A DNA stretch of 64,000 bases from a virus (IMGVR_UViG_3300045594_000145:32001-96000); one strand, 5' to 3'. Counted from the stretch's first letter, positions 6,879 to 29,171 are shown. Numbers and translations: made by a program. Notes: generated by a model from the sequence alone, not told the origin.

Positions 6879-7860
6879 AATACATAGGTTATAGCCTGTA
6901 TTCAGAATTGCACTGAATGTTATCTACTAAGACAGACAGTTTAGCAGGATTATCGCACCTGCTAGGCGACTTAGGCTGAGAAAATTGACCTTCATTTACT
7001 TACATCCTTGCTCGGTTGGCCGCGCAATTTCACACAACTGTTTTACAATTGTAGTAAGTATCGACACTGGTTTTGTGAAAACCAGCAAACTCTTACTATA
7101 TCCTCAGATAACTTTCCTTTCCTAACAGCTCCCCTTGGAAGGGTTCGATAGCTCCCGCCACCTAAGTTAAATTAGTAATTGTACTTGTTTGCCCTATACC
7201 TTGCGAGCTAGTAGCATCTGTATGTTACAACAGAATAAGTCGATATGTCAGAATATAGTCGAGCACGCTTTTGCTTTTGTTAGAAAACTTTTCAATATCC
7301 AATTGATTTTTCATATTTTCATAAAAGTTTCGCGTAATAACGATTTATTAGTCGATGTGGTGCTCGTTCGGTATCCCACTCTTTTGGAGTGGATCCAACC
7401 AACACCGCCTTCCTTTCGCGTCACCTACTCAGTTTATTTGCTGTTTACAAGTGATGTTTCAATCGACTCGTTGCAAATAATGAAGCCCGCACTTAAGTTT
7501 GACGAACTTTGCACGAACAACCTCTATCCGTAATCGTATATTTCTATACTTATTTACCGGCTACGAACCGATAACTGCTCTAATAACTATAAAATCTGCA
7601 CGAAGTTATAGCTAGCACTACGCATAATATAGAGTCTTTCTGTGGAAGCATTACACTCGCAAAGCACGTTGAACTTTGCTTTGGCCCCATTACTGGGGTT
7701 ATCCTTGGCTACGGCTACGAAGACTAGCCGCTGAGAATTTAGCTTATTGACCGAAGTCATAATTTCTAGGCAATACCACGTAGAGGTATCTCAATCATTG
7801 CCCGACTGGCTTGCGCCAGCTTCTTTTGTCGTTTCTATTAATAAATTAAGTTTTCCTTAA
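6850..7860 (-). ncRNA. large structured ncRNA, ROOL/GOLLD class (ROOL favoured)
   Basis: ~1 kb with no credible ORF between a sigma-A promoter and a terminator; dense hairpins; motifs CUGAGUAGG, GGUGUUGG..CCAAAAG..CACCAC, GCAAAAGCGUGC and 3' UCUCAGCC recalled as ROOL-like; near tRNA cluster. Confidence 0.65.
7732..7803 (-). ncRNA. HDV-like (theta-type) ribozyme R7
   Basis: P1 GGGCAAU/AUUGCCU, P2 UGAGAU/AU(U)CUCA, P3 ACC/GGU, L3 UCUACGU, P1.1 CU/AG, P4 with UUCG loop, J4/2 GCUAA. Confidence 0.85.
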
Positions 7861-7871
7861 CTTATATAATA

Positions 7872-7900
7872 ATTATATCATATTTTTTAAAATGAGTCAA
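7872..7900 (-). promoter_or_regulatory. sigma-A promoter of large ncRNA
   Basis: TTGACT-17 nt-TATAAT with TG extension. Confidence 0.8.
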
Positions 7901-8526
7901 GAAATTTTTGAAAGAATTAATTCACTTTCCGGAAGTGTTTCTACCCACTCGCAAAAAATTCTCCACTCTGGTAAACGATGGTTTTTTCTTTGAGAATAAA
8001 TAGTCTTTAATTCTCTATAGTTAGTAACTATGCGCGCAGTCAAACGGAAACCCGCAGGATTAGAATATAGAATCTCTAAATATTTCTCATTTAACTCTCT
8101 TCCATAAAGTTCTTTTTGTTCTTTTGTTTCAGCTAAATCTGATTTTTGAAGAAGATCTTCATATTTAGCAATTTTGTCTCTCATAATTTCTATGATGCGC
8201 GGATCAACTTCTTTCATATAACTTGTATCAAGATCAAAAGAAGTAATTCTGTGCATTGTAGACTGAGAGGAAACAAAATTTGCAAAACGGTATCTTTCAA
8301 ATTCTACCCACGCCTTATTGGAAAAGCAAAGATCGAACATTACGGTTATTCCAGTTAAAAATTGGTCTTCACCGCATCCTTTAGGAGAATTTGCAAGAGC
8401 TTTAACCGTCTTAGTAATCTCTGGGGTTGCTTTTGAAAGGTCTGTTAAGTAAGAAAATTTAGAGCCTTGAATAGATTCTTCTAATCCGTAAACATGGACA
8501 TTTGAAATTATATCATCAATTTCCAT
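7897..8526 (-). CDS. ThyX-fold (FAD-dependent thymidylate synthase-like) phage protein
   Basis: EFERYR..VSSQSTMHR and TNYRELKTIYSQRKNHRLPEW resemble a ThyX-related phage family. Confidence 0.5.
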   Translation of the reverse strand: MEIDDIISNVHVYGLEESIQGSKFSYLTDLSKATPEITKTVKALANSPKGCGEDQFLTGITVMFDLCFSNKAWVEFERYRFANFVSSQSTMHRITSFDLDTSYMKEVDPRIIEIMRDKIAKYEDLLQKSDLAETKEQKELYGRELNEKYLEILYSNPAGFRLTARIVTNYRELKTIYSQRKNHRLPEWRIFCEWVETLPESELILSKIS

Positions 8527-8527
8527 A

Positions 8528-8968
8528 TTACTTCTTTGCCCCCCGAGACTTCAGTCCAAGGCTTCCAAGAGGATATCTACACCATGGTATAAGATTTTGA
8601 TACATTCCTTCTGTGCCATAGAAAACAGCGATTGGTCTATTGGTATCACTTTTAATTTCCAACATTTCGCCGGTCACGTTCAAATAAACTCTTTCAATGA
8701 AGGCTGGCGCAGGGGTTAAATGGTCACATTGGAACTGTAAGAAATCTTTCTCTTGCTTATTTAGTAAAGAATATTCTTCACATTCAGATTCTGCCCATCT
8801 TTTCTGAACATCCCTACAAGACTCACTTACGCCAGGTTCGGGGTAAAAAGAACAATCACTACAGTTACAAGTGTTGCAGTCAACTAGTTTTCCATCTTTT
8901 AGTGCGATTATTTTATTTTCGAGGGCAAATTGAGCTAAAGTTTCAAGATTTTTTTCTTTGTTGTTCAT
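8528..8968 (-). CDS. hypothetical protein (Cys-rich N-terminus; C-terminal domain shared with 11545 and 33688 ORFs)
   Basis: CNTCNCSDC; L..QEKDFL...YPLGSLGL. Confidence 0.65.
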   Translation of the reverse strand: MNNKEKNLETLAQFALENKIIALKDGKLVDCNTCNCSDCSFYPEPGVSESCRDVQKRWAESECEEYSLLNKQEKDFLQFQCDHLTPAPAFIERVYLNVTGEMLEIKSDTNRPIAVFYGTEGMYQNLIPWCRYPLGSLGLKSRGAKK

Positions 8969-8999
8969 AATAATAATTACCTTTCTATGGGTTAATTAG

Positions 9000-9071
9000 T
9001 GCGTCCAGAAGGGGACGATCCTTCGACTGGCCCTTATCAGGAGCCTGTTTTTACCGTTGAACTATACGAAT
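9000..9071 (-). pseudogene. degenerate tRNA-Ile(GAU)
   Basis: D, anticodon (CUGAUAA) and T arms present; acceptor stem does not pair. Confidence 0.6.
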
Positions 9072-9117
9072 ATAAGAATCTTTAATAAGAATAACATATT
9101 TTTTAAAAATTGTCAAG

Positions 9118-9190
9118 TGGACACTTTTGGAGTCGAACCAAATTCCAAGGCTCTTCAAACCTCTGCTATAACCGTATCAGCTAAGTGTCC
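9118..9190 (-). tRNA. tRNA-Phe(GAA)
   Basis: GGACACU/AGUGUCC acceptor, UUGAAGA loop, UUCGA T-loop. Confidence 0.85.
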
Positions 9191-9195
9191 ATAAA

Positions 9196-9256
9196 TTTTG
9201 GTATCATGGCTCGAACATGAGATTGCCGACCGTTTTACCTACTAAACTATACCAAA
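9196..9256 (-). ncRNA. tRNA-like RNA lacking an anticodon arm
   Basis: Acceptor UUUGGUA/UACCAAA, D-arm, T-arm UCAUG-UUCGAGC-CAUGA; only 11 nt between D and T arms. Confidence 0.75.
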
Positions 9257-9307
9257 ATATGCTATTTTTATTTTTAAATACAGAATACTGCTATTGAATG
9301 GGAAGAA

Positions 9308-9730
9308 TTAGTCTTTTTCATGCGCCTTGTTATACTCATCTTCAATCTTAACCAGAACCGCTCCAAGACATTGTGGATATAAATATACACGAATGGCAAC
9401 ATCGCAATATTCTGCCCCTTTTTTGATGAGGACACTTCCATCCATTTCAAATTCCTTCAATACATCAAATAACAAATCTAGATTATGGCATAGATATTCT
9501 TCTGCTTGATATGTGTTGAAAGTATAAGAACCAGAACTATTGCCTGTGATACTATCTTCATTTATTACTTCATCGTTTAAATATTCTTCAAGGTCATTAA
9601 AAGTATCATAATCCTCAAAATCAATATTATCTTTTACATACTCTAAGATATCATTCTTTACTGCCTGTTCATAATCATAAGTTTCTGACATAAGACTCTC
9701 CTGTCTATCATAAACCATAAACTTTGTCAA
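9308..9730 (-). CDS. acidic helical protein, Ocr-like DNA-mimic candidate (paralog family A)
   Basis: Very D/E-rich; YDYE..DSITGNSSGSYTF..AEEYL..N..LL motif shared with 20594 ORF. Confidence 0.55.
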   Translation of the reverse strand: MTKFMVYDRQESLMSETYDYEQAVKNDILEYVKDNIDFEDYDTFNDLEEYLNDEVINEDSITGNSSGSYTFNTYQAEEYLCHNLDLLFDVLKEFEMDGSVLIKKGAEYCDVAIRVYLYPQCLGAVLVKIEDEYNKAHEKD

Positions 9731-9752
9731 ACTATTTCATACGATATTTTAG

Positions 9753-9824
9753 TATCCCCACAGAGATTCGAACTCTGATTGTAGGTTTAGAAGACCTATG
9801 CACTCTCCTTTGTCCTGTGAGGAT
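9753..9824 (-). tRNA. tRNA-Arg(UCU)
   Basis: UAGGU-CUUCUAA-ACCUA; full cloverleaf. Confidence 0.85.
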
Positions 9825-9828
9825 ATAA

Positions 9829-9901
9829 GGGTGTCATTCAAGAATCGAACTTGAATAAGATGTTTCACAGACATCCACGCTACCTTTGCGCCAATGACAC
9901 C
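9829..9901 (-). tRNA. tRNA-His(GUG)
   Basis: GAUGU-CUGUGAA-ACAUC; G-1:C73 pair. Confidence 0.85.
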
Positions 9902-9904
9902 AGA

Positions 9905-9978
9905 TGGAGGACGGAGTGAGAGTCGGACTCACGATCTAGGGGTTGCGGCCCTATGCCTTACCGCTTGGCTAACCGTTC
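9905..9978 (-). tRNA. tRNA-Cys(GCA), atypical (C33, acceptor mismatches)
   Basis: UAGGG-CCGCAAC-CCCUA; encoded CCA. Confidence 0.7.
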
Positions 9979-10014
9979 TAGTTTTGAATTAACTACTTTC
10001 TTAAGAAAGTATAG

Positions 10015-10085
10015 TATACGCACTAAGAATTGAACTTGGATTTAGCGCTTATCAGGCGCTCGTTCTACCATTGAACTATGCGTAT
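10015..10085 (-). tRNA. tRNA-Ile(GAU)
   Basis: AUACGCA/UGCGUAU; AGCGC-CUGAUAA-GCGCU. Confidence 0.85.
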
Positions 10086-10091
10086 ATATAA

Positions 10092-10164
10092 TGTTCTGAT
10101 TGGGACTTGAACCCAAAATCTTATTCTTGAGAGGAATACGATTTAACCATTCGTCTACCGCAGC
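10092..10164 (-). tRNA. tRNA-Glu(CUC), weak acceptor stem (possibly pseudo)
   Basis: UAUUC-CUCUCAA-GAAUA; good T-arm; several acceptor mismatches. Confidence 0.6.
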
Positions 10165-10170
10165 AAATAG

Positions 10171-10259
10171 CGCAAACTGCTAGCTTCGATCTCGCGCTAC
10201 GAATAATCGTAGGACGGTTTAGCGAACCGTTGGTTTCAACCAGACTCACCCAAGTTTGC
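10171..10259 (-). tRNA. tRNA-Ser(GCU), C33
   Basis: ACGGU-UCGCUAA-ACCGU; long variable arm; G73. Confidence 0.75.
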
Positions 10260-10263
10260 ATAG

Positions 10264-10345
10264 TCGGTTGCGGGAGACTTGAACTCCCACGTCTTTCAAC
10301 ATTAGCTTCTAAGGCTAACGCGTCTGCCAGTTCCGCCAGCAACCG
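10264..10345 (-). tRNA. tRNA-Leu(UAG)
   Basis: UUAGC-CUUAGAA-GCUAA; Leu-type D-arm and variable arm. Confidence 0.9.
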
Positions 10346-10351
10346 ATAACT

Positions 10352-10423
10352 TGTGGAGTAATGAGATCGAACCGATATTATCTGTTTGGTAAACAGACTT
10401 ACTAGCCGTTGTAAGACCTCCAC
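10352..10423 (-). tRNA. atypical tRNA with ACC anticodon (Gly), weak T-stem
   Basis: UCUGU-UUACCAA-ACAGA; GUGGAG/CUCCAC acceptor; T-stem poorly paired. Confidence 0.55.
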
Positions 10424-10436
10424 AATTTTGAAGCAG

Positions 10437-10507
10437 TCTCCGCAGAATGAATCGAACATTCGTCTCTCGGTCCCAGGCCGAGTGGTCTACCATTAACCTA
10501 CACAGAG
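10437..10507 (-). tRNA. tRNA-Pro(UGG), C33
   Basis: CUCGG-CCUGGGA-CCGAG; C1-G72, A73. Confidence 0.8.
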
Positions 10508-10511
10508 ATAG

Positions 10512-10585
10512 TGGAAGATAAAGAGATCGAATCTTTAGTCTATCGGTTATGGGCCGAGTGCTTTATCCTATTAAGCTAATCTTCC
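10512..10585 (-). tRNA. tRNA-Met/Ile2(CAU), C33
   Basis: GGAAGAU/AUCUUCC; loop CCCAUAA. Confidence 0.8.
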
Positions 10586-10621
10586 AATAATTGCATATTT
10601 TATAGCGTTATGCTACGCTAA

Positions 10622-10694
10622 GGCCAAGTAGTGGAATTGAACCACTAACCTCCTACTTACGAAGTAGTTGCTCTACCGATTGAGCTAAATTGGC
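10622..10694 (-). tRNA. tRNA-Thr(CGU)
   Basis: loop UUCGUAA; canonical D and T arms. Confidence 0.85.
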
Positions 10695-10705
10695 AATTTG
10701 ATAAG

Positions 10706-10785
10706 TCCTTGAAGTGAGGTTCGAACTCACACGCTCTCGCAGTGGATTTTAAGTCCACTTTGTCTGCCAGTTGCAACATCCAAGG
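10706..10785 (-). tRNA. tRNA-Leu(UAA)
   Basis: GUGGA-CUUAAAA-UCCAC; variable arm present. Confidence 0.85.
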
Positions 10786-10790
10786 AGTAG

Positions 10791-10864
10791 TGCGCGACGT
10801 AGAACTCGAATCTACAATAACCTATTTTTGAGACAGGCTCCTCTGCCAGTTGGGACAGCCGCGC
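10791..10864 (-). tRNA. tRNA-Leu(CAA) with short variable loop
   Basis: CCUGU-CUCAAAA-AUAGG; variable region only UUAUU. Confidence 0.8.
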
Positions 10865-10906
10865 AAGATTTTAAATTTATTTAATTCTTTCTTTGTTTAT
10901 GTATAT

Positions 10907-10935
10907 ATTATATCATTATATTAGGAGATTGTCAA
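10907..10935 (-). promoter_or_regulatory. sigma-A promoter of tRNA block
   Basis: TTGACA-17-TATAAT. Confidence 0.8.
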
Positions 10936-11023
10936 GCTTTCTCTTTTAAAAATGAGGACAAAAGACGGAAGAATTACCTACGTCTTTCTGGTATCGTTCC
11001 TACACTTGGCAGGACAATGAAAT

Positions 11024-11079
11024 TAGAGGCAGCCAGACTCGAACTGACATATTGACTCTTACCCTTGAGCTATACCTCT
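11024..11079 (-). ncRNA. 56-nt tRNA-like RNA with no anticodon arm
   Basis: AGAGGUA/UGCCUCU acceptor, GCUC-AAGGGUAA-GAGU D-arm, 6-nt linker, GUCAG-UUCGAGU-CUGGC T-arm. Confidence 0.8.
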
Positions 11080-11186
11080 TCTGTTTGATCGTGCACAATC
11101 CTCCACAGATGGAGTGCCGCTTAGTAAATAAAAGAACAAGCAGGCTTATTCAGTCAGATGGCACTGCCATCTATTACATGCGGCAA

Positions 11187-11306
11187 TTTGTTCGGTAAGG
11201 ATTTGCACCTTACAAGCATAGTCATTGCTTTTTCAACTTTAATTAGAGTGATAGCTCTATGCGGTGCTCACTGGACACCCGTGTTTACCTATTCCGCCAC
11301 GAACAA
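11187..11306 (-). ncRNA. Leu-like tRNA scaffold with very long variable arm
   Basis: UUGUUCG/CGAACAA acceptor, GGCGGAAUAGGUAAAC D-arm, GGUGU-CCAGUGA-GCACC, ~48-nt arm closed by GCAUAG/CUAUGC, UGCAAAU T-loop. Confidence 0.7.
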
Positions 11307-11311
11307 TTTAA

Positions 11312-11530
11312 TTACTTACTCAATTTAATATCTTCAATCTGGGCACGAGTTTCAAGCACATATAAATACTGCCCCATGATTGATGCCTGCTTTCTCAATA
11401 AATCAATTGGGCATGTAGGTGTAAACTCTAACTTTCCCGCATCATATTTAACAAGCATCTTATGTAATTTCTGGTACTTATCATCTAAATCTTTATATTC
11501 CTTCACAAATCTAACTTTGTAATCTTCCAT
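11312..11530 (-). CDS. conserved small phage protein
   Basis: LL.KQ..IM.QYL.VLE.RA motif; RBS AAGGAG. Confidence 0.75.
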   Translation of the reverse strand: MEDYKVRFVKEYKDLDDKYQKLHKMLVKYDAGKLEFTPTCPIDLLRKQASIMGQYLYVLETRAQIEDIKLSK

Positions 11531-11544
11531 GTTATTCTCCTTTC

Positions 11545-11943
11545 TTATAGTCCTAATTCCTTTGGTGTATAATCACATTCTCTTTTCATGCCAATGAACT
11601 TAGTCCCTCTATCAAAAGGAAATAGAAGAATATTTTCTCCGCCTTCTGTTTCAATATCAATGTTCTCACGATTGGCGTTATATAGTTTGCAAATTGAAAT
11701 TATTTTTCTATCTGCTTGACTGATTACGGTTTTTAGATAATCATGTTCTTCCTGCGTTAAGATTGGTTCTGGCTTAATAGGCTCCCATGCATTAGGCGAT
11801 ATTTCTGTTAATTTACAGATACCATTATTTCTGCCAATCAAGCAATTATCACATCTATCTTGTTTTTCACAACAATTCCGTATTGTTTCGATAGCTTCAT
11901 TCAATTTTTTGATTTCATTTTCCATATTATTTTCCTCTTTCAA
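11545..11943 (-). CDS. hypothetical protein (Cys motif plus shared C-terminal domain)
   Basis: CCEKQDRCDNC; LTQEEHDYL...YTPKELGL. Confidence 0.7.
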   Translation of the reverse strand: MKEENNMENEIKKLNEAIETIRNCCEKQDRCDNCLIGRNNGICKLTEISPNAWEPIKPEPILTQEEHDYLKTVISQADRKIISICKLYNANRENIDIETEGGENILLFPFDRGTKFIGMKRECDYTPKELGL

Positions 11944-12097
11944 TATTATCTTATCATTTTTAAATTAATTGTCTATAATTTGTAACCATTTTCGCAGTTA
12001 GCCTAAAGCCCGTTTTGCTAGATACCGATGGCCGAAGCCATAGAGTCCTACCATCAAACGATGACCTAATATTAAGTGGAGGTGTGGGGCAATGCTC

Positions 12098-12727
12098 CTA
12101 TAAATATTCAAAATGATAACCCAAATAGCTTGTTTTGTTATTATATCCAGTAAGAGACTCACTTATCTTTTTCCCTACATTATCCACTTTTTTGGTTCTT
12201 GTATAGTTGTTATCTATCAACCACTGAGCACATTCAACTACAGAGGAAAACTCTTTTTCTAATTCTTTAACTTTAATTGGTTTTGCGTGAATTTCTGCAC
12301 TACTTTTTATCGGAATATTATTTTGAATTAATATATCATGAACGCTATCTGTAGATATTCCTAATTTCGTGGCTGTTTTTCTTATATTCTGTTCTTCTTT
12401 ATAAGTTTTAATAACAAGATCTCTATCAATATAAGGTTTTCCATCCCCGCCTTTTGTTGCGTTATACCCATTTCCATAAGAGCCGTATCGACTAATCCAA
12501 TAGATTTCTCTTTCTTCAGCTTCTGAATCTTCACATTGTTCTACCTCTTCAACTGAAAAATTTTCAACACCATATTTGTTCATGGCAGAATAAAGAGGCC
12601 GGTGTTCCATCCGACATTTCTTATAATCTTGACAATGTTCTTTAAATCTTTTTTCTATCGTGCCCAGAGTTTTTCCGATATAAATTTTGCCATTAATTGA
12701 ATTTGTTATTTTATAAATATATGCCAC
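12098..12727 (-). CDS. free-standing GIY-YIG homing endonuclease
   Basis: YIYKITNSINGKIYIGKT..RFKEH..E..W..GYN..GGDG; C-terminal HTH/NUMOD; GTG start with AAGGAG. Confidence 0.9.
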   Translation of the reverse strand: MAYIYKITNSINGKIYIGKTLGTIEKRFKEHCQDYKKCRMEHRPLYSAMNKYGVENFSVEEVEQCEDSEAEEREIYWISRYGSYGNGYNATKGGDGKPYIDRDLVIKTYKEEQNIRKTATKLGISTDSVHDILIQNNIPIKSSAEIHAKPIKVKELEKEFSSVVECAQWLIDNNYTRTKKVDNVGKKISESLTGYNNKTSYLGYHFEYL

Positions 12728-12789
12728 GATGACTAACTCCTTTTCTATAAAAACTCTATAGAAATTGGTAAAGTAATATCACAATAATT

Positions 12790-12828
12790 CTTGTAATCTT
12801 GCTCGCCTACCAATTACGACACATGCCG
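12790..12828 (-). pseudogene. 5' half of a tRNA truncated after the anticodon loop
   Basis: CGGCAUG-UG-UCGUAAUUGGUAGGCGA D-arm, then no 3' half; abuts the GIY-YIG leader. Confidence 0.5.
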
Positions 12829-12833
12829 AATAG

Positions 12834-12904
12834 TAGTGATTATAGGTAATGCTCCTATGTCTACCGCTTATCAGGCGATTGCTCTACTTTTGAGCTAAAT
12901 CACT
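12834..12904 (-). tRNA. tRNA-Ile(GAU), atypical T-loop
   Basis: AUCGC-CUGAUAA-GCGGU; T-loop AGCAUUA. Confidence 0.8.
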
Positions 12905-12908
12905 AAAG

Positions 12909-12979
12909 AGTTCTATATCGGGATTGAACCGATGCTATCTGCTTGGAGGGCAGATGTACTACCATTATACGAATAGAAC
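12909..12979 (-). tRNA. tRNA-Gly(UCC), C33
   Basis: UCUGC-CCUCCAA-GCAGA; U73. Confidence 0.85.
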
Positions 12980-12980
12980 A

Positions 12981-13054
12981 TGGCTGGCTCTAAGTGAATT
13001 GAACACTTATACTCTCCTTAACAGGGAGGAGTTCTACCATTGAACTAAGAGCCA
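12981..13054 (-). tRNA. tRNA-Asn(GUU)
   Basis: loop CUGUUAA; encoded GCCA end. Confidence 0.85.
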
Positions 13055-13175
13055 ATATTAAGCACTATCGCAGTACCCGCGTCCCTTGCTATTATTGATA
13101 GCGCCGGAGACAGCTGATTTTTTAAACGTCGCGACCGAATCATCCTAGATGTTAGACGGTCTATTCCAGACGTAG

Positions 13176-13246
13176 CACAGGAGCAAGGATTTGAACCTCG
13201 ATAAGCAGTTTTGGAGACTGCCGTCCTGCCGTTGGACGACTCCTAT
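13176..13246 (-). tRNA. tRNA-Trp(CCA)
   Basis: GCAGU-CUCCAAA-ACUGC; G73. Confidence 0.9.
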
Positions 13247-13251
13247 ATAAG

Positions 13252-13326
13252 CCTTCTCTGAGAGAGTTGAACTCTCAACCTCTTCGTTCGTAGCGAAGCC
13301 GTCTATCCAATTGACTATAAGAGAAG
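13252..13326 (-). tRNA. tRNA-Arg(ACG)
   Basis: CUUCG-CUACGAA-CGAAG. Confidence 0.8.
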
Positions 13327-13332
13327 ATAATA

Positions 13333-13403
13333 AGCCGGCTGGGAGAGTTGAACTCACATTTACAGCTTACAAGGCAGTTGGTCTACCGTTAATCTAAGCC
13401 GGC
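13333..13403 (-). tRNA. tRNA-Thr(UGU)
   Basis: GCCGGCU/AGCCGGC; loop CUUGUAA. Confidence 0.8.
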
Positions 13404-13407
13404 ATAG

Positions 13408-13480
13408 CACGCTCATAGAGATTTGAACTCTAATTATGCGCTTAGAAGGCGCATGCCCTATCCAATTAGACTATAAGCGT
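13408..13480 (-). tRNA. tRNA-Arg(UCU), second copy
   Basis: UGCGC-CUUCUAA-GCGCA. Confidence 0.9.
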
Positions 13481-13484
13481 ATAG

Positions 13485-13557
13485 TTGCGTGAGGCCGGAA
13501 TTGCACCGGCGACCTCTTGGTTATGAGCCAAGCGAGCTACTACTGCTCCACTCCGCG
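13485..13557 (-). tRNA. initiator-type tRNA-fMet(CAU)
   Basis: CGCGGAGUGGAGCAG start, C1xA72 mismatch, loop CUCAUAA. Confidence 0.85.
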
Positions 13558-13832
13558 ATAAGAGATAATATTAAAGAAGAAAACTCTTTCCTTACTATAT
13601 AATATTATCATAAATCTATGAAAGTGTCAAGAAACACTTTCTGTCATCTTTTGTTTCAATCTGAACTTCGGTTCTGCTGATGACTTACCGATACACGTAG
13701 TAAAACTACAATTTGTGAACGTCACTTCTATTCACTTGCGCCTGTCGTTTAAAGATGGCGCTGACGCCGCAAAACTCTTTTACGGAGAACTAGTGCATGG
13801 GTTTATAAGGTTTTCCTTCCTTTACTATATAT

Positions 13833-13861
13833 ATTATACTACTTTTTTAAAATTTTGTCAA
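13833..13861 (-). promoter_or_regulatory. sigma-A promoter preceding an ORF-less structured segment
   Basis: TTGACA-17-TATAAT. Confidence 0.75.
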
Positions 13862-13880
13862 GTGGTTTTCTCTAAAACTT

Positions 13881-14555: not shown

Positions 14556-14723
14556 GACAAAAAAGTCTGGATCACTTTAAGTCATGACGTCTTTTTAAAT
14601 ATTCTTGGTAATCTCTTTCTCTGCGCTCGTCTTCTAAAGAAGCCGCCTTTGCTAAAGCAAAAACCATTACTAATAATCCGCCAATAACAATAATAGTCAT
14701 AATAAAAGCTTGTAACTTTAACA

Positions 14724-20959: not shown

Positions 20960-21124
20960 TTTAGTTCTCCTTTCTTTAATATATATATTATAACACAAAA
21001 GAGAAGAAAAGTCAACAGGGGCCGCAAAATGGGTTCAAAGAATGGGGAAAAGATACCCCCCTGTTCCGCTCGCCCCCCCCCTTTTTTTTCAATATCTAAG
21101 AAATCTATAAAGCAGCGGCGCCAA

Positions 21125-21702: not shown

Positions 21703-21780
21703 AATATTCTCCTCTTTAATTAAATCTGAAAATTCAATAATTTCAAAACCTTCCTAAAGTGAGTACACTGGCGACATCTA

Positions 21781-22239
21781 CTAATTCCGCTTTTTTTCGA
21801 AATACCAACTATTGGCTGCAAATATTTTCTGTGCGCGGACTTTTTTGATTCTATCTAAAGAGGTATTAATAATATCGTAATCAGAACTAAGACTACCATC
21901 TACTTTATCAGACGGACTCAACGTAATCATCTGACACTTATTTGGTAAGATTGATTGAATAAAATTTTCCGCATCATCAATAAAGAATAATACGTTTTCT
22001 TCCTTAAGTGCCTTATTTAAAGGTTCTTCTCCATAGAGTTGCCGCATTAAAGTTTCTGCTAATAATGGTTTATTTTGAAATGGCATAGATAACTCTCTAG
22101 CCTTGGCTTCAATCGAATTTCTATTCATTGAATTTGTACAAATTAAATAGCAATTATAACCTTCCTTTTGTTTCTGGAATATTTCGTAAATCATTTCGGT
22201 TGTTTTGCCAGTTCCTCTTGGCGCATAAATTATCTTCAT
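21781..22239 (-). CDS. small P-loop NTPase-like protein
   Basis: APRGTGKTT Walker A; FFIDD Walker B-like. Confidence 0.6.
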   Translation of the reverse strand: MKIIYAPRGTGKTTEMIYEIFQKQKEGYNCYLICTNSMNRNSIEAKARELSMPFQNKPLLAETLMRQLYGEEPLNKALKEENVLFFIDDAENFIQSILPNKCQMITLSPSDKVDGSLSSDYDIINTSLDRIKKVRAQKIFAANSWYFEKKRN

Positions 22240-22501
22240 ATTATATTACTTCCTTTTCTGATTTTTTACTAATAGACTTTAAGTAAGAAGAAATTTGTTC
22301 TTCCTCTTCTGCGGTTGGATTCTTAAATTGTACTGCTCTTTATAAAGTTCTGGAAGTGGCATCTCCTTTCAACAAAGTATGACTTTAAATAGTGCTATGA
22401 CTAAAAGTGTTATAGCAATGATAAGTAAACCTAAACTATAAGCTGCTAATGCGGTTAGACAATGCTCGATTGAGAAAATTTTCTTTAGCCTGCTGATGAA
22501 A

Positions 22502-22939
22502 TTATTCATATTTGTTCTCTTCGTTCAAATCTTCAGTAGAGTTCCAAAAAGTTCTTGCAACTCCACTATTAACTACGTCTGCAATAATTCCGTCCATAAT
22601 CCCATCATAGGCATATTGCGCAACCATCCTTGACATGTATCCTTCACCTTCGCGGATATCGCGCCAGTTGAGATCAAGGTTATAGCAAGCTTCGGCAAGA
22701 AGTTCAAAGTTCCCAAAAAGACGCGCCGCACCAGTCATGTTGTCATCTACTTCTCCGACAATGGCATCTTCCTCTTGCATATCTTCACAGACGTAATTCA
22801 CAAACTCTACAAAAGTATCAAAATAAGTAAAATCAGTTCCCTCATAAAGCCACTTATATGCGGCGGCCTTTACTTCCTTATGATAGTCAAAAACATTGTT
22901 GGTTGATAACAGAAGCGTTGAACACTTATTCTTTTTCAT
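22502..22939 (-). CDS. acidic protein, divergent member of paralog family A
   Basis: FDYHKEVK...EDAIVG...GNFELL; D/E-rich. Confidence 0.5.
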   Translation of the reverse strand: MKKNKCSTLLLSTNNVFDYHKEVKAAAYKWLYEGTDFTYFDTFVEFVNYVCEDMQEEDAIVGEVDDNMTGAARLFGNFELLAEACYNLDLNWRDIREGEGYMSRMVAQYAYDGIMDGIIADVVNSGVARTFWNSTEDLNEENKYE

Positions 22940-23018
22940 AAGATGTAATTCCTTCCTTTTATATATTAATTATAACATAAAAAGCCGCAGAGGTCAACAA
23001 AAATCTGCGGCAACCACA

Positions 23019-23288
23019 TTAGAGGGTTCTAATCGGTAACCTTGAGAAATACCTAGAGCAGTGCATCGATCTGAAGTGTAACTCTAACCATTCCTCTGAT
23101 GGCTCCTGTTGAAAATCAAAGAAGAAGGTGCGGTTATCCCTGTGGTCTATCAAATATAAGATATATGGGTAAATACCTGAAGGATATTTCCGCAAAATAA
23201 AATGACACCATTCTCCCTCGAAGTCATCTATCATAGGGAACGACTCAAAATCTTCGCCCTCTGGCTTATCAACTGTGTATACTTTCAT
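23019..23288 (-). CDS. hypothetical protein (paralog of 19066..19362)
   Basis: shared C-terminal motif. Confidence 0.75.
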   Translation of the reverse strand: MKVYTVDKPEGEDFESFPMIDDFEGEWCHFILRKYPSGIYPYILYLIDHRDNRTFFFDFQQEPSEEWLELHFRSMHCSRYFSRLPIRTL

Positions 23289-23574
23289 CTGGCAGTATCC
23301 TTCCCCAAACTACCCAGTTCCAATCTAGTCCTAAGCAGTTCGCATCAGCAGTGGTTTGAATGCGGTCATAGTCAATCAAGGCGTCCTTTTCGATGAACCC
23401 CTTGGCTTCCTCGACTCTATCAAAATAGAACATTGACCGTACATACTTCCCATTCATCAACTTGAAGCAGTAATAGCACTTCTCTGGCTCGCCACTGATG
23501 GCACAAAGGTCATAGCGATATATACCATCTTCAGAGAGCCACTGGTCTTTGCTTCGTATTTTCTTAAATCTCAT
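23269..23574 (-). CDS. hypothetical protein
   Basis: 101-aa ORF, ATGA-coupled to upstream gene. Confidence 0.6.
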   Translation of the reverse strand: MRFKKIRSKDQWLSEDGIYRYDLCAISGEPEKCYYCFKLMNGKYVRSMFYFDRVEEAKGFIEKDALIDYDRIQTTADANCLGLDWNWVVWGRILPDESIHS

Positions 23575-24011
23575 AGAGTCTCAATCTCCCAAACGTTCCT
23601 ATCCGCAGGTTTACTGATATAGATGTTCCCATTATCCTTACAGTTTTCCGCACTAAAGGTAAGCATAGTGAATTGTGAATTATGTCTTCCTTCCCTATAC
23701 CCGACAGCAAGACTCAGATCGCGGCCTTTTCTTTCTACCATAACTCTAATAGAAGTTACCAGAATGAAGTCTCCAGTGAGTAAATCGTCTGCTAACCATT
23801 GGTCACTTGTTTCAAATTCTGCCTGTTCATCTGCCGTCGAGATAGTTGCCTCAAAGAAATCTTCTGAAGACAGCTCTGCGTTCCCTAAACTTGAGAGTGT
23901 TACCGTTATGCCCTGTTGCGGCATTCCATCTTCCTGCTCAGTTTTCTGGATTTTGAGAGTGCAAAACCCATAGAAATTCTTTTCAATATTTACATCAACA
24001 CTGTTTTTCAT
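23571..24011 (-). CDS. hypothetical protein
   Basis: 146-aa ORF with RBS and promoter. Confidence 0.65.
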   Translation of the reverse strand: MKNSVDVNIEKNFYGFCTLKIQKTEQEDGMPQQGITVTLSSLGNAELSSEDFFEATISTADEQAEFETSDQWLADDLLTGDFILVTSIRVMVERKGRDLSLAVGYREGRHNSQFTMLTFSAENCKDNGNIYISKPADRNVWEIETL

Positions 24012-24139
24012 AGTTTTATCTCCTTCTATTATATTATATCATAGTGCGCGCAAAGTGTCAATAAGCACATTTTTTGACAATTTTTAAAAAATATGCTATA
24101 ATTAGTATGTAAGAGAGGAAAAGGAGCTTAAAAACTAAC

Positions 24140-24691
24140 ATGGGACTAAATTTATCGCAAACTGAACGTTTGCTTTCATATAAAGTGATACTGGGATACT
24201 TCAGACACCAAAGAGTAGCAGATTATATAGGTGTCGACAGAGGAGTCATCCACAATGTGCGGCGTCACGCAGATTTAACAGAAGAAGAATTGAAGGACTT
24301 GGAATCAACTATGTACTTCAATCTCTATCCGAATGAGGTTAATGCCCTCCTCGACCTCATGGAAATGCTCCAAGTGCATGCAGAGGAGTTAACTAATAAA
24401 GATTTAACAGATGCGGAACGTGAGGCGCATATGAAAGTCCTCATGTACTACCTAAGACCTACACTAGTTGGTCGTATGGCAGGTGTCTCCGAATCTGATA
24501 TTCACAATCGGCTTACCCTTTTTAGAAGGAAGCCTCGGATCAGCGTTTACAAACAGGTTCAAGAGATATTACTTGCTGATTTCTTCCCGCTAAAAGAGTG
24601 CCTTAAAGAAGAGAATCTTTCAGAAGAAGCTCTTGAGCAATTTAGGAAGCTTGACGGCAAGGAACGTTTCAAACAAGTAAGACTCCGCTAA
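24140..24691 (+). CDS. putative DNA-binding regulator with two HTH-like segments, divergently transcribed
   Basis: QRVADYIGVDRGVIHN and TLVGRMAGVSESDIHN; own TTGACA-17-TATAAT promoter. Confidence 0.55.
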   Translation: MGLNLSQTERLLSYKVILGYFRHQRVADYIGVDRGVIHNVRRHADLTEEELKDLESTMYFNLYPNEVNALLDLMEMLQVHAEELTNKDLTDAEREAHMKVLMYYLRPTLVGRMAGVSESDIHNRLTLFRRKPRISVYKQVQEILLADFFPLKECLKEENLSEEALEQFRKLDGKERFKQVRLR

Positions 24692-24697
24692 ATCTCC

Positions 24698-25351
24698 TTA
24701 GCAGTTTGCTTCATCTGCTTCATCACAGAGCTGCTCCTCTCCCTCAGCATTAAACAAACCTACATAGTCTTTATCAAATAGACCATCCACTCCGCCGTAA
24801 TCAATAAATACAATTCGACCGTCATAAATACCAATATTTCCGTCATGGGCATCTTTAAGTAAAAAGATATAAAGGTCCCCATTTTCAGCCCACATTTTAG
24901 ACATTCCGTCTAAAAAGTTACTCACCATAGCATTTACATCTTCAGCAGACATTCCGAGTTCAGCGGCATTGTAGAGAGAAGTTTTAACAACTTCCTTCAA
25001 TTCATATTTCCAGCCATCAGCAAAAGCATTTTCGTGAGACTCAGAGATCTGATTAGTTCTGCTCACATAGGAATTATCTTCTTCCTTGCTATTAGGATAA
25101 TATCCTTTGCAAGTTGCGCGAGCCATCTTAATGCACTCATAATCGCTATGCTGTAGGTCAATAGGACATAACACATTATACTTAGATCCGAATTCGTTGA
25201 AAATACCAAGCTCATTGAGATTGGTGTAGAGAATATCGAGGTTAGAAGATTCTCCACTTTCAACATTCTCAGTGTTGTAGTGCTTCTCAACATAGTCTGG
25301 GTAAATCTCAGTTCTTCTAAATAAACCATAACGTACATCTTCTGGAGTCAT
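24698..25351 (-). CDS. protein-kinase-like fold protein
   Basis: KDAHDGNIG (catalytic-loop D-x-H-x-x-N) and FIDYG (DFG-like); start MTPEDV after AAGGAG. Confidence 0.55.
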   Translation of the reverse strand: MTPEDVRYGLFRRTEIYPDYVEKHYNTENVESGESSNLDILYTNLNELGIFNEFGSKYNVLCPIDLQHSDYECIKMARATCKGYYPNSKEEDNSYVSRTNQISESHENAFADGWKYELKEVVKTSLYNAAELGMSAEDVNAMVSNFLDGMSKMWAENGDLYIFLLKDAHDGNIGIYDGRIVFIDYGGVDGLFDKDYVGLFNAEGEEQLCDEADEANC

Positions 25352-25664
25352 AATTGTATTCTCCTTTTCTTTATACATATAGTATACCATAAAAGGTAAA
25401 AAACGTCAACAGAGAAGTTTTAGAGATCTTGATAGTATTGTTACCAAAGCACGGAGCGCAATTTCTACTAAGATGTCAACTAAGATCCCACATGACGAGT
25501 CGATCTCCTGTTCACACACTTTTCTGTCCTTCCCCCACTTTTTATCTACTTTTCTCCCACATTTTGCAGGAAATCTTCACTTTTGGTAGCACTGTTTCTT
25601 CCGGTTTTTAGATATGATTTTAGCTTAATCGTTCATTTAGGCTCAGAAAAACGGGTAAATATCC

Positions 25665-26480
25665 GAAAAAGGGCAAAAGCTAAATTTAAAGCTGCTCAGA
25701 ATCAGCCAAAAGCTTAATTTTCATAGTAAAAAATCGGACAAAAGACTCCTCCGGAGAGAAAAAATTTGCTCTGTGTTTCGTCGGCAAGGCTCTATGCTTT
25801 TAGCTTATCTTAAAGTGCGCGCACGCCCATCATTGGGTTCAATTCTTCAGTCATTATTCCACTATTTGCGGCTAGACATTCCCTAATTTTTGTCTAAAAA
25901 GTCAGGTTTCCCCCATATTTGGTCGAGTTTCTTACATTTTCCCCACAATTTCATCGAGTTTCCTACAATTTTCTCATCCTTCCATCCTATTTCTTCTAAA
26001 AACTGCCTATCCCGCAACGTCTTTTTTCTATTACTGCCAATTATGTGATTTTTATAGCTTTTTCCCTTGTTTTTTCACATATTTATGCTAATAGAGCAAA
26101 TTAAATTTTTCCCTCTACTCTCCCAAAGGAAGGGGCAAAAAGCGCTTTCTTATTCAGCTAGAATTCAGCGAAAAGCTTGATTTTTGAGTCAAAAAATATG
26201 ACAAAACAACTTTCGGAGAGAAAATTTTGTCCTGTGTAATGTCAGAAGAACATTATGCTTTTAGCTGGTTGAAAATCCTGCGCAAAGAGTGCGGCCAGGT
26301 ATGTCAGGATGCGCCGCATTTCAATAAAAACACCTGTGATATAGCTTTAAATTTTTTTTACGGGTATTTACTCGAAAAATGGAAAAACGCTTTTTTAAAG
26401 CGCTAAATAGGAAGCAAAAAGCTTGTTTTTTGAGTCAAAAATCATGACAAAAGACTGCCCGGAGAGGAAAATTTTAGTTA
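25665..26480. repeat. three degenerate ~100-140 bp direct repeats in a 1.4-kb non-coding tract
   Basis: AAAAGCTT..TTTT..AGT.AAAAA...GACAAAA..CT..CGGAGAG.AAA.TTT at ~25708, ~26171 and ~26417. Confidence 0.8.
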
Positions 26481-26824
26481 AAAATCTGACACAGGAGTAC
26501 ACCCAATTTTTGATTTTAGAAGATATTGCGCGATGGACACTTTCTAAAATTTGTCTACCATTTGAAGTCTCACTAGTCCGCCATTTCGGGTTGGACTTTT
26601 TTGCCGTTTCAGTGGTCAAGATTTCCTTGACAAGTGGCCGACATGCGCGTAAAATTGTCGCGTTTGACGGGACACTGTATCTCTTAGTTGCGCCGCAGTT
26701 TATAATTTACTCCAAAAATTTTGTGTACCATTTTCAGAATACAGAATTTTTTTAAGCTTTTTGCACAAAAAAAAATTGTGTACTCATTTCAGAATACAGA
26801 AATTTTTCCAGCTATGGGCGCAAT

Positions 26825-26853
26825 AAAAAAGAGAAGCCGCAAGGCTTCTCTCT
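26825..26853 (-). terminator. intrinsic terminator
   Basis: GAGAAGCC-UUGC-GGCUUCUC + U6. Confidence 0.8.
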
Positions 26854-26863
26854 AGGTCAACTA

Positions 26864-27157
26864 TTAGAACCAGAATGGAAAATTGAAAATTGAATCAAAG
26901 ATATCGGTTGGCTTGTCATCAATGCGCGTCTCAACAGAGAACCAGGTGCCGTAATCCTTGATGAACTGATTCTTCAATTCATTGTAGTGATCGATTGCGT
27001 CTTCAGCAGACTTCTGCGCCTTCTCAACCTCAGCCGCACGCGCCTTCTTTTCTGCGTTCTTCTTCTTTGTGAGTTCTGCGCTCTTGGCTGCTTCTACTTC
27101 AGCCTTCTTTGCATCCTCGATGTTGTCAAATGTCTTTGTTCCTACTAAATACTTCAT
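26864..27157 (-). CDS. hypothetical coiled-coil protein
   Basis: start MKYLVG after AAGGAG; Ala/Lys-rich. Confidence 0.7.
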   Translation of the reverse strand: MKYLVGTKTFDNIEDAKKAEVEAAKSAELTKKKNAEKKARAAEVEKAQKSAEDAIDHYNELKNQFIKDYGTWFSVETRIDDKPTDIFDSIFNFPFWF

Positions 27158-27211
27158 GTGTTTTCTCCTTTGCGGCCCTTGCTGCCGTCTTACTACTGCG
27201 TCTATCACGCA

Positions 27212-27234
27212 GGAAAAACCTGCCGAAGCAGGTT
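27212..27234 (-). terminator. terminator-like hairpin closing the ribozyme array
   Basis: AACCUGC-UUCG-GCAGGUUUUU. Confidence 0.7.
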
Positions 27235-27289
27235 GTATGCGTAAATGATATATACGTAGAATTATCCCAGTGGATTATCATTTACGACT

Positions 27290-27374
27290 AGAGAATTGGT
27301 TCTTCTACTTCGGCGGCGAACCGCTTCCTTGAATTAGTAGACTGCGCCGCATAGAGGCTTCTCTTATGCAGTCC
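27290..27374 (-). ncRNA. HDV-like ribozyme R6
   Basis: P1 GGACUGC/GCAGUCU, P2 AGAGAA/UUCUCU, P3 GCC/GGC, L3 UCUAUGC, P1.1 U-A, J4/2 AACCAA. Confidence 0.8.
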
Positions 27375-27544
27375 TAATCAAATCATAATACACATACTTC
27401 TCAGGTATGCCGAGGCTTATTTGCACTGGTCATGACTCCACGCTTATTCGCCATTTCTGCCGCAACCTACTTTCATCGCGATGTCCAGTAAGTTCTTTTG
27501 GTGTAACCATCCTAACAGTAAGGACTGGTAAGATTTGATTGTGA

Positions 27545-27610
27545 TAGATTTAGTTCTCTCGCCCAAGAGCAAGTCCAGCCGCACCCCGTGGAGGTATCTA
27601 ACTTGCGGCC
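27545..27610 (-). ncRNA. HDV-like ribozyme R5
   Basis: P1 GGCCGC/GCGGCU, P2 UAGAU/AUCUA, P3 ACC/GGU, L3 UCCACGG, P1.1 CC/GG, P4 CUCUU/GAGAG, J4/2 AACUAA. Confidence 0.9.
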
Positions 27611-27860
27611 ACCCGCTTATCTTATTGAAAGCGGTAGAAAGTCAGTTTTGCTCTTTGAAAAGCTAAGTCAACCTGCCGCCGCAGGATTTAAAGCGTACGC
27701 AACTCTTCTTTTTGGTTAAGAGAGGTATTGACGAGAGAACCGCCCCACGTCTGGGGACTTAGTGGCTTAAGCTTTGACTTCGTACAGTGCTACACTAACT
27801 GAAGTCTAGGCGTTAGTATGTCATTACATTGCAGTAATGGATACTTAATCCTTGTATTTT

Positions 27861-27931
27861 GGGTACGTCTGGAATCGAACCAAAACCTTCTCCCCATACA
27901 AGAGGAGATGCACAGCCACGCACTGTATACC
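27861..27931 (-). ncRNA. degenerate tRNA-like domain inside the ribozyme array
   Basis: T-arm UUUGG-UUCGAUU-CCAGA, extended anticodon arm UCUCCUC-UUGUAU-GGGGAGA, partial acceptor GGUAU/GUACC. Confidence 0.6.
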
Positions 27932-27959
27932 GTCAGGGTCTTTCACCAAAGGATTATTT

Positions 27960-28030
27960 GTAGAACTTTGTTTAGTCTGGAGCTACCAAATTGTCCACTC
28001 TCGCCACGGGGAGGCGTCTACTATGAGAGC
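27960..28030 (-). ncRNA. HDV-like ribozyme R4 (bulged P2)
   Basis: P1 GCUCUC/GAGAGU, P3 GCC/GGC, L3 UCCCCGU, P1.1 CC/GG, P2 GUAGAC/GU(U)CUAC, J4/2 CAAA. Confidence 0.65.
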
Positions 28031-28086
28031 ATATAGATTGCGCGGTTACTTACTTGGGCGCGCCAATGAACCGTCTGCCGCAATCT

Positions 28087-28140
28087 TGATGTATTAGTTG
28101 GATATCCAGACACGCCACGAGGAGGCTACATCATGTGTCC
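28087..28140 (-). ncRNA. minimal theta-type ribozyme R3
   Basis: GGACAC-A-UGAUGUA-GCC-UCCUCGU-GGC-GUGUCU-GGAUAUCC-AACUAA-UACAUCA; all HDV elements present. Confidence 0.92.
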
Positions 28141-28608
28141 ATCCCCTTGCCTAGGAGCTACCTAGACAGGAGTTATATGCTTTCCCTAAGCAGGGGCCGA
28201 AGCCCAAGGGGTTAGTTCGCGTGGGAAACTACCAAGGTGCTAAATCCGATCGGTTGCGCGCAATTTTCCTGACACTCTTTAGACTCGCGAGGAAAATTTC
28301 TAATTCTACGAGCAAGCTTTTCTCTTCTTTATACTTGGTGAGCGTTCATCCAAGCGGCGTTTACTTCTTTATCCTCGCATAAACACCAAAACGCGAGTCG
28401 GCCGCAGGCCGTTTATCCTTTAATTTTACCACTAGAGAAGTAGGAATATGGGTATGTTCACTCGCGGAACATACAAGTAGCGCTTTGCTCTAATCACGGG
28501 ATAGAGGTACGAGATCGGCAGTTCCTGTTTACCGCAAAGGTGGAGGTTTAGGGGTGCGTGAACCTGTTTCTTTCAATTATAACGCCCGAAGTTCTAAGAG
28601 GCAGCTTA

Positions 28609-28938
28609 TTACTTATTAGCTTTATAATTCTTCCAGAAATCGGAGTTGACTATAAAGTTATTCATATGGAGATAGAAGTTATCACTATAACCGGTTGCCG
28701 CATTAGTCATGTGATACTGATCAAACCATGCTTCTTCACTGTAACCATTTGCTCTATCGTGGAAAGTAACACGATACACTGAATTGACGCCACTGTGGTC
28801 TTCATACCTATTATCGTATCTTTCATGGATAACCGCGTAGAAGCGACCTTTGTAAACGTCCTTTTCTATTTGTTTATTCATGTGACGAACAGCAGTTCTA
28901 GCGCGTCTTTTATTCGCTCTTACTTTTTTGTCTATCAT
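28609..28938 (-). CDS. hypothetical basic protein embedded in the ribozyme tract
   Basis: start MIDKKV after GAGGGAG RBS and promoter. Confidence 0.7.
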   Translation of the reverse strand: MIDKKVRANKRRARTAVRHMNKQIEKDVYKGRFYAVIHERYDNRYEDHSGVNSVYRVTFHDRANGYSEEAWFDQYHMTNAATGYSDNFYLHMNNFIVNSDFWKNYKANK

Positions 28939-28963
28939 GTTAACTCCCTCACTTTCTATATAT

Positions 28964-28992
28964 ATTATATCATAGATTTTGAAGATTGTCAA
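28964..28992 (-). promoter_or_regulatory. sigma-A promoter driving ORF 28609 and ribozymes R3-R6
   Basis: TTGACA-17-TATAAT with TG extension. Confidence 0.85.
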
Positions 28993-29001
28993 GCAGATGT
29001 T

Positions 29002-29057
29002 TGATGATTCTCAGTAGAAGAGCAGTTGCGCCGCGAGCAGGCGATCATCATGCAACC
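29002..29057 (-). ncRNA. HDV-like ribozyme R2
   Basis: P1 GGUUGC/GCAACU, P2 UGAUGAUC/GA(A)UCAUCA, P3 GCC/GGC, L3 UGCUCGC with compensatory P1.1 GC/GC, J4/2 CUGA. Confidence 0.75.
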
Positions 29058-29109
29058 ATATGGGGAGCCGTCTGGCAAACGACTCCCAGCAAAAGAGAGA
29101 GTATACAAA

Positions 29110-29171
29110 CGAACTTTTAGAACCCGAAGGGGTAGCCGCATTGCCACGTCAAGGCAAGTTCGATAATGCGG
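29110..29171 (-). ncRNA. HDV-like ribozyme R1 (non-canonical C at +1)
   Basis: P1 CCGCAUU/AAUGCGG, P2 CGAACUU/AAGUUCG, P3 GCC/GGC, L3 UUGACGU, P1.1 G-C, P4 ACCC/GGGU, J4/2 UCUAA. Confidence 0.75.

Follow-up and report, generated by a model that had tools for sequence, protein, structure and literature searches.

P1.1 covariation across seven predicted HDV-like ribozymes in a phage genome

The window analysed here is a 64,000-nucleotide stretch of DNA (IMGVR_UViG_3300045594_000145:32001-96000) that represents bases 32001-96000 of a 108,945-bp (base pair) IMG/VR virus record, a phage genome of about 109 kb with direct terminal repeats, and near-identical DNA occurs in bioreactor sludge, manure, pig and wastewater runs. 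Small minus-strand open reading frames (ORFs) fill window bases 1 to about 37,000, and 21 transfer RNA (tRNA) genes are present in the window, 20 of them in two clusters (9117-13557) and one at 27860-27932. Seven elements (R1 to R7) lie in non-coding stretches on this same minus strand, and very probably they are genuine hepatitis delta virus (HDV)-like, or delta, ribozymes of the phage minimal/theta lineage, placed in sense on early, mostly non-coding transcripts. Covariation in P1.1, the short helix between positions 2 and 3 of loop L3 and the two bases after P1, offers a clean internal proof that the seven are real ribozymes of the HDV type, and both the assignment of a six-ribozyme array (R1-R6) and that of a ribozyme ahead of a GOLLD-like RNA (R7) depend on this proof.

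The elements are built of a P1 of 6-7 bp, a short J1/2, a P2 of 5-7 bp, P3 (GCC/GGC or ACC/GGU), a 7-nucleotide L3, the P1 3' strand, two bases, a variable P4 region, the motif C-N-R-A and the P2 3' strand. R1 (29110..29171, minus strand like all seven) lies in the 3' untranslated region (UTR) of an ORF at 29572-29204; its 7-bp P1 is closed by C1-G and not by G1.U, and with an L3 of UUGACGU and post-P1 bases CU its P1.1 consists of G29150-C29135 and U29151.U29134, the J4/2 C being at 29120. R2 (29002..29057; 6-bp P1 with G1.U, L3 UGCUCGC, post-P1 bases GC) has a GC/GC P1.1 (C29037-G29023 and G29038-C29022) and a J4/2 of CUGAGA with its C at 29014. R3 (28087..28140; L3 UCCUCGU, post-P1 bases GG) is a minimal form in which a linker replaces P4, with a CC/GG P1.1 (28122-28121 with 28107-28106) and the J4/2 C at 28097. 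R4 (27960..28030; L3 UCCCCGU, post-P1 bases GG) carries a real P4 hairpin, a CC/GG P1.1 (28011-28010 with 27996-27995) and a J4/2 of CAAA, and its catalytic C is most likely C27970 within this CAAA, since the alternative C27975 is replaced by U in the relatives described below, completing a P4 pair. R5 (27545..27610; P3 ACC/GGU, L3 UCCACGG, post-P1 bases GG) also has a CC/GG P1.1 (27591-27590 with 27576-27575), and its J4/2 C is at 27553. R6 (27290..27374; L3 UCUAUGC, post-P1 bases AC) possesses a long P4 that includes a GCGG-UUCG-CCGC hairpin, a P1.1 of U27353-A27338 and C27354.C27337, and a J4/2 of CCAA with C at 27299. Finally, R7 (7731..7803; P3 ACC/GGU, L3 UCUACGU, post-P1 bases AG) starts about 60 nucleotides past a promoter and has a CU/AG P1.1 (U7782-A7767 and C7783-G7766), with the J4/2 C at 7742. 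P4 is a hairpin in R4-R7 and a 4-bp stem in R1, while R2 and R3 show the minimal linker build.

A strict descriptor (P3 NCC/GGN, 7-nucleotide L3, minimum lengths of 6 bp for P1 and 5 bp for P2, and C-N-R-A preceding P2') returned exactly seven matches across the entire 108,945-bp genome, every one of them minus-strand, compared with 0-1 matches in each of 20 Markov-shuffled genomes (about 0.05 per genome). No further credible ribozyme was found genome-wide, and none beside the tRNA arrays, with a relaxed descriptor accepting any G+C-rich P3 and an L3 of 7 or 8 nucleotides; its sole extra match (57318-57261) was rejected as lying antisense within an ORF of 2566 amino acids and starting with U. 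The strand order P1-P2-P3-L3-P3'-P1'-P1.1-P4-J4/2-P2', that of a nested double pseudoknot, fits all seven elements. Only C18, C19, U20, G25, G27 and G28 are invariant columns, namely the C-C/G-G of P3 together with U1 and G6 of L3, and at the level of sequence this invariant core equals the HDV catalytic core. The U at L3 position 1 and the G at position 6, present in 7/7, match the reverse-wobble pair of the HDV metal site, and the C-N-R-A ahead of P2', also in 7/7, would supply the position of the J4/2 catalytic C. The P1 and P2 strands are all different between copies with every pair standard, and a P1/P2 pair count including two paralogues from relatives gave 54 + 45 pairs, all standard, each position showing 2-5 pair types. 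Recent duplication is excluded because the P1 and P2 sequences wholly differ yet stay fully paired. A reading of the seven matches and their P1.1 pairing as chance products of a permissive search through 64 kb of sequence could point to a loose descriptor, which gives about 100 matches per strand in this AT-rich window and is hence uninformative, and to the choice between a 6- and a 7-bp P1 register, which was made by family analogy. Against it stand the seven strict matches where about 0.05 were expected, their confinement to one strand and to non-coding stretches, and their conserved core.

For the P1.1 analysis, the pair between L3 position 3 and the first base after P1 was designated pair a and that between L3 position 2 and the second base pair b. 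A manual parse and two gapless core alignments were used, because a full-element MAFFT alignment misplaced the post-P1 bases. The P1-proximal pair a is Watson-Crick in 7/7 copies (C-G in four, U-A in two and G-C in one; exact permutation p=0.0095). Pair b is paired in five of the seven (C-G in four, G-C in one), the others being U.U in R1 and C.C in R6 (p=0.43), and joint permutation of the dinucleotides gave p=0.0024. In register, 12 of the 14 P1.1 pairs form, compared with at most 7/14 when only the partner was slid by 1-3 bases and at most 8/14 when other L3 positions were tried as well. These results make the covariation solid for the P1-proximal pair, while covariation of the second pair among the seven rests on R2 alone. 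The earlier note on this DNA had described, copy by copy, a covariation of L3 positions 2-3 with the bases right after P1, and the parse of the seven elements reproduces that description exactly; the G1-U wobble it reported at the cleavage site in six of seven copies is likewise seen in R2-R7, R1 having C1-G.

Close relatives, about 96% identical, were recovered as one JGI contig and seven Logan contigs (L008-L016), and R1-R6 are kept in them. No change occurs at any P1.1 position in these relatives, so that they add no P1.1 covariation. In R5, two P1 changes (C4-G31 to U-A and G5-C30 to A-U) are both fully compensatory and P2 is lengthened to 8 bp. A CUAA to CCAA change at the free N position is found in R3 (relative L008) and in R5. 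R2 is identical in all close relatives covering it, while the region diverged by about 4%. The relative L008 has an R1 with an extra L3 base and without the top P1 pair. Beyond these contigs, the array had no blastn match among 50,697 phage records, the two small ORFs flanking the array had no relatives found in IMG/VR, and an exact 35-mer of R3 had no IMG/VR match, the window's own record possibly being masked. A search with the terminase-like ORF found only one near-identical fragment, and through a 45%-identical homologue of the ORF at 7897-8526 a complete phage record of 100 kb (G001) was reached, which has no match to the core pattern, so the array is not common to that distant relative. 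As a separate observation, the stretch with the tRNA-Thr gene (27766-27946, minus strand) is a swappable cassette that is replaced, in relatives recovered from other runs, by unrelated tRNA-less sequence (L010:4592-5315). The replacement carries an eighth HDV-like ribozyme (L010:4964-5034) with a UC/GU P1.1; its P2 and the 3' strand of its P1 are similar to their counterparts in the R5 of the relatives.

An independent sample was obtained by scanning IMG/VR with two core patterns. In both, P3, most of L3 and a downstream CUAA are fixed and the post-P1 bases are unconstrained, while C is disallowed at L3 position 3 in one and at position 2 in the other. Filtering on P1, P2 and J4/2 left 66 unique ribozymes, which come from 51 viral contigs (loci L051-L252). 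Pair a is Watson-Crick in 65/66 of them (C-G 43, U-A 12, G-C 8, A-U 2), whereas shuffles gave a mean of 31.5, with 44 as the best of 20,000, and slid registers gave at most 17. For pair b, G is matched by C in 14/14, A by U in 2/2, C by G in 6/9 and U by U in 38/41, and the pair is Watson-Crick or pyrimidine-pyrimidine in 66/66, with U.U the commonest. When pairs were counted on the two gapless core alignments including the window copies, 0/500 shuffles reached the observed pairing or covariation score, and slid controls were far lower. The phage P1.1 is thus characterised by a strictly Watson-Crick first pair, for which all four orientations occur, and by a second that is Watson-Crick or pyrimidine-pyrimidine. 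Half of the external ribozymes (33/66) start 0 or -1 nucleotides from the 3' end of a tRNA or transfer-messenger RNA (tmRNA), which independently confirms the cleavage-site register and shows that the variant P1.1 types also serve in the established theta arrangement. When the catalytic C was exchanged for A, G or U in control scans, 4, 6 and 12 matches, respectively, overlapped no C match, compared with 80 matches for C, so the sample may hold a few false positives.

With the compensatory changes in the relatives, a register confirmed by external tRNA ends and the previous publication of R3 (see below) added to the strict-descriptor scan, a chance origin is refuted and we give it practically no weight. 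The seven elements are therefore best read as ribozymes under selection on their fold: the shared core, the P1 and P2 strands that all differ and all pair, the compensatory changes in R5 and the 66 external ribozymes uphold the earlier note's view that selection, and neither chance nor recent duplication, explains the pattern.

Two further P1.1 observations came from the same scan. A UC/GU P1.1 (C-G over U.U) is found in 22/66 ribozymes, 15 of the 22 being flush with a tRNA 3' end (for example in L093, L213, L193, L161 and L146), and in L093 five ribozymes follow immediately after tRNAs inside a 5-kb stretch. Since a motif demanding two standard P1.1 pairs misses this type, published theta counts may be low. 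In addition, GU/AC and GC/GC ribozymes have their first base right at the 3' terminus of phage tmRNA genes (L091:3140-3209, minus strand, and L227); the L091 tmRNA is placed by Rfam at 3209-3623 (minus strand), and the L227 tmRNA, by ARAGORN, ends flush with the ribozyme start.

Minimal HDV-like, or theta, ribozymes have been described in Caudoviricetes (Riccitelli, Delwart and Luptak 2014; Kienbeck et al. 2024, PMC10879173), the latter study reporting 526 phage matches without tRNA association and of unknown function. The seven elements resemble theta ribozymes in fold, in core (RCC-U..YG.-GGY and C-N-R-A), in their tailed-phage hosts and in their sense orientation within non-coding stretches. 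R3 is letter for letter the isolated theta ribozyme no. 1934 (25 occurrences) of Supplementary Data 2 of PMC10879173, and a published GC/GC ribozyme with a CUGA J4/2 in that study resembles R2. The elements differ from theta ribozymes in that none of the seven cut sites lies within 5 nucleotides of the 3' end of any of the 21 window tRNAs (the nearest, tRNA-Thr, ends at 27860, about 250 nucleotides from the R5 site), which makes them 'isolated' ribozymes in the terms of PMC10879173. Further differences are the full P4 hairpins of R4-R7 in place of a short linker and the C, not G, with which R1 starts.

An IMG/VR ribozyme in L052 scores 77.5 bits against drz-Fpra-1 (RF02682, the Faecalibacterium prausnitzii HDV ribozyme) and shares with R7 the P3 ACC/GGU, the L3 UCUACGU, the CU/AG P1.1, a P4 hairpin and a CUAA-type J4/2. 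R7 itself, however, has no RF02682 match at E<=10, its P1, P2 and P4 sequences are unrelated, and it has G1.U where the L052 ribozyme has G1-C. Natural HDV-like ribozymes from C. briggsae and from an Ackermannviridae phage, known as crystal structures (PMC13635239, 2026), have a P1.1 of U:A over C:U or U:U, one of them with C1, and cleave at 4-9 per min. The C1 and the non-canonical second pairs of these ribozymes cover the odd features of R1, R6 and R7, and R6 resembles the fast C. briggsae ribozyme (U:A + C:U) in its U-A first pair and pyrimidine-pyrimidine second pair. The exact combinations differ, being G-C over U.U in R1 and U-A over C.C in R6, and tests of these two were not found in the parts of the literature consulted. 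With the genomic and antigenomic HDV ribozymes, the elements share the nested double pseudoknot, a two-pair P1.1 under P1, the L3 U.G reverse wobble, the J4/2 catalytic C and, in six of seven, the G1.U wobble. By contrast, the HDV ribozymes have only G-C pairs in P1.1 and a long P4, and they act in the rolling-circle replication of an RNA genome, where the phage elements would process transcripts. Disruption and rescue of the HDV P1.1 were reportedly done in 1999-2000.

The P1.1 helix, its pairing requirement and its natural variants are thus already established, and the present analysis adds members and numbers but no new principle: the observation is confirmed, and the seven elements are six new members and one already published member of a known family. 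The suggestion that standard descriptors might miss the variant copies holds in part. Rfam 15 misses all seven, and R1, R2, R6 and R7 were not found in the part of the PMC10879173 supplements that was searched. The RNArobo motif published there, however, treats P1.1 as a helix and returned GC/GC and UC/GA, and CC/GG, UC/GA and GC/GC P1.1 are already present in the hit lists of that study; moreover, R3 is published verbatim and the ribozyme with the L3 and CU/AG of R7 scores as RF02682. The novelty implied by the earlier note is therefore overstated. The variety of P1.1 nonetheless means that a large number of phage ribozymes, some of them flush with a tRNA or tmRNA, will escape motifs that demand CC/GG or two standard pairs.

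Several points weigh against the assignment of all seven as ribozymes. Within the genome, the second-pair statistic is non-significant among the seven paralogues, and external sequences of the same type may share ancestry, so that their counts overstate independent events. Rfam 15 gives no HDV family for any of the seven (window positions 6500-30500, E<=10), its HDV models being narrow and unable to model pseudoknots. RNA contigs from one wastewater metatranscriptome span the predicted cut sites of R2, R3, R4 and R5, and no contig ends pile up at these sites, the four runs examined being covered as assembled contigs; the bridging contigs could be uncleaved RNA or DNA carry-over and neither support nor exclude cleavage. 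Finally, R1 lacks the G1.U wobble, R1 and R6 each have a single Watson-Crick P1.1 pair, and R2 combines a J4/2 of 6 nucleotides with no clear P4; individual copies could be slow or dead.

These last features, together with the p=0.43 of the second pair alone and the altered R1 of relative L008, would be expected if R1, R6 and perhaps R2 were decayed, inactive relics with a single P1.1 pair by chance, leaving R3, R4, R5 and R7 as the only working copies. However, R1, R2 and R6 keep a perfect P1 of 6-7 bp, a P2 of 6-7 bp, P3, the L3 U1 and G6 and the J4/2 C, and every P1.1 type of the window recurs outside it (GC/GC in 13 external ribozymes, UG/CU in 8 and the CU/AG of R7 in 2) except the exact CU/AC of R6. 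UG/CU with the L3 of R1 was found in eight unrelated ribozymes, of which seven also have C1-G; the eighth, with G1-C, abuts a tRNA, and a tRNA-Met 3' end adjoins one of the eight. Likewise, 10/13 of the GC/GC ribozymes are flush with a tRNA or tmRNA 3' end, and R2 itself stayed unchanged in all the diverging relatives that cover it. C1 and pyrimidine-pyrimidine second pairs are, moreover, known in fast ribozymes, and the C1 of R1 is not disqualifying because C1 occurs in the active C. briggsae ribozyme and in 12/66 external ones. On balance, decay of these three copies appears quite unlikely, and seven ribozymes remain the preferred reading.

In the proposed mechanism, each element would fold as a nested double pseudoknot in which L3 positions 2-3 pair with the two bases after the P1 3' strand. 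With the geometry taken from PMC13635239, P1.1 would stack under P1 and tie the P1-P1.1-P4 stack to the P2-P3 stack, an arrangement that would bring the J4/2 cytosine together with the U20.G25 metal site to the bond on the 5' side of nucleotide 1. After cleavage, the upstream RNA would end in a 2',3'-cyclic phosphate, and the downstream RNA would retain the ribozyme and begin with a 5'-OH. Because the P1-proximal pair of P1.1 must be Watson-Crick, it would change only by double substitution (C-G, U-A and G-C here), and the second pair would be looser, accepting C-G, G-C or pyrimidine-pyrimidine. The sequences themselves establish the fold signature, the P1.1 covariation, the conservation of the core and the position on transcripts; from these we infer self-cleavage and its use in cutting early transcripts into separate RNAs. 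R1 and R2 would end the mRNA of the ORF at 29572-29204, and R3-R6 would cut the transcript of an ORF of 109 amino acids, with its non-coding tail of about 1.4 kb, into pieces that include structured RNAs between R3 and R6.

If cleavage occurs, the P1.1 differences might not be neutral and might set cleavage rates, so that early transcripts are cleaved one site after another in a set sequence, or incompletely at certain sites. P1.1 strength does vary widely, from two G-C pairs in R2-R5 through C-G plus U-A in R7 to one pair and a mismatch in R1 and R6. Published work connects a weak P1.1 with the slowness of CPEB3 ribozymes and with increased fragility in two natural ribozymes, and incomplete cutting could be tolerable both at R1, in an mRNA 3' UTR, and at R6, the last ribozyme before the array terminator. 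By contrast, some of the fastest natural ribozymes known have U:A + C:U or U:A + U:U, indicating that P1.1 strength is not predictive of rate, and in unrelated phages the same P1.1 types turn up again as lineage traits, half of them doing one job at tRNA ends. We consider rate-setting unlikely. A related coupling is seen between P1.1 and the cleavage-site pair: C1-G occurs in 12/23 external ribozymes with a pair a other than C-G and in 0/43 of those with C-G (Fisher p=2.7e-7 for the C1-G/L3-position-3 coupling, shared ancestry not corrected for), a pattern that also fits R1 and the published C. briggsae ribozyme (C1 with U:A). Conceivably, though with little probability, this coupling marks old distinct subtypes of which the phage assembled at least four on its early transcripts, and differing rates, arising from their different P1.1 and first-pair chemistry, would then release the RNAs in a set order.

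The remaining features of the locus concern the transcripts on which the ribozymes would lie. Strong sigma-70-type promoters were recognised at 29649-29621, 28992-28964 and 7900-7872, all on the minus strand. The last of these heads a promoter-to-terminator unit shared by R7 and, about 320 nucleotides downstream of it, the 3' conserved domain of a GOLLD-like RNA (6973..7410, minus strand; Rfam RF02032, 97.1 bits, E 1.3e-24, under the gathering score of 150). R7, lying upstream on the same unit, would therefore create the 5' end of the GOLLD-like RNA. A literature search found no paper on GOLLD or ROOL together with HDV ribozymes, and self-cleavage is unmentioned in the GOLLD cryo-electron microscopy paper. 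The non-coding stretches between ribozymes at 28141-28600 and 27375-27544 (minus strand) are stem-rich and higher in G+C than the rest of the window, and no Rfam family was found in them at E<=10. The promoter at 28964..28992 matches the sigma-70 consensus at 12/12 positions, with an extended -10 TG, and lies between R2 and the 109-amino-acid ORF, which makes the R3-R6 array part of its transcript. At least seven similar minus-strand copies of this promoter are present in the genome (the others at 62278, 64284, 24219, 42896, 63268 and 20304), and together they look like a set of early promoters.

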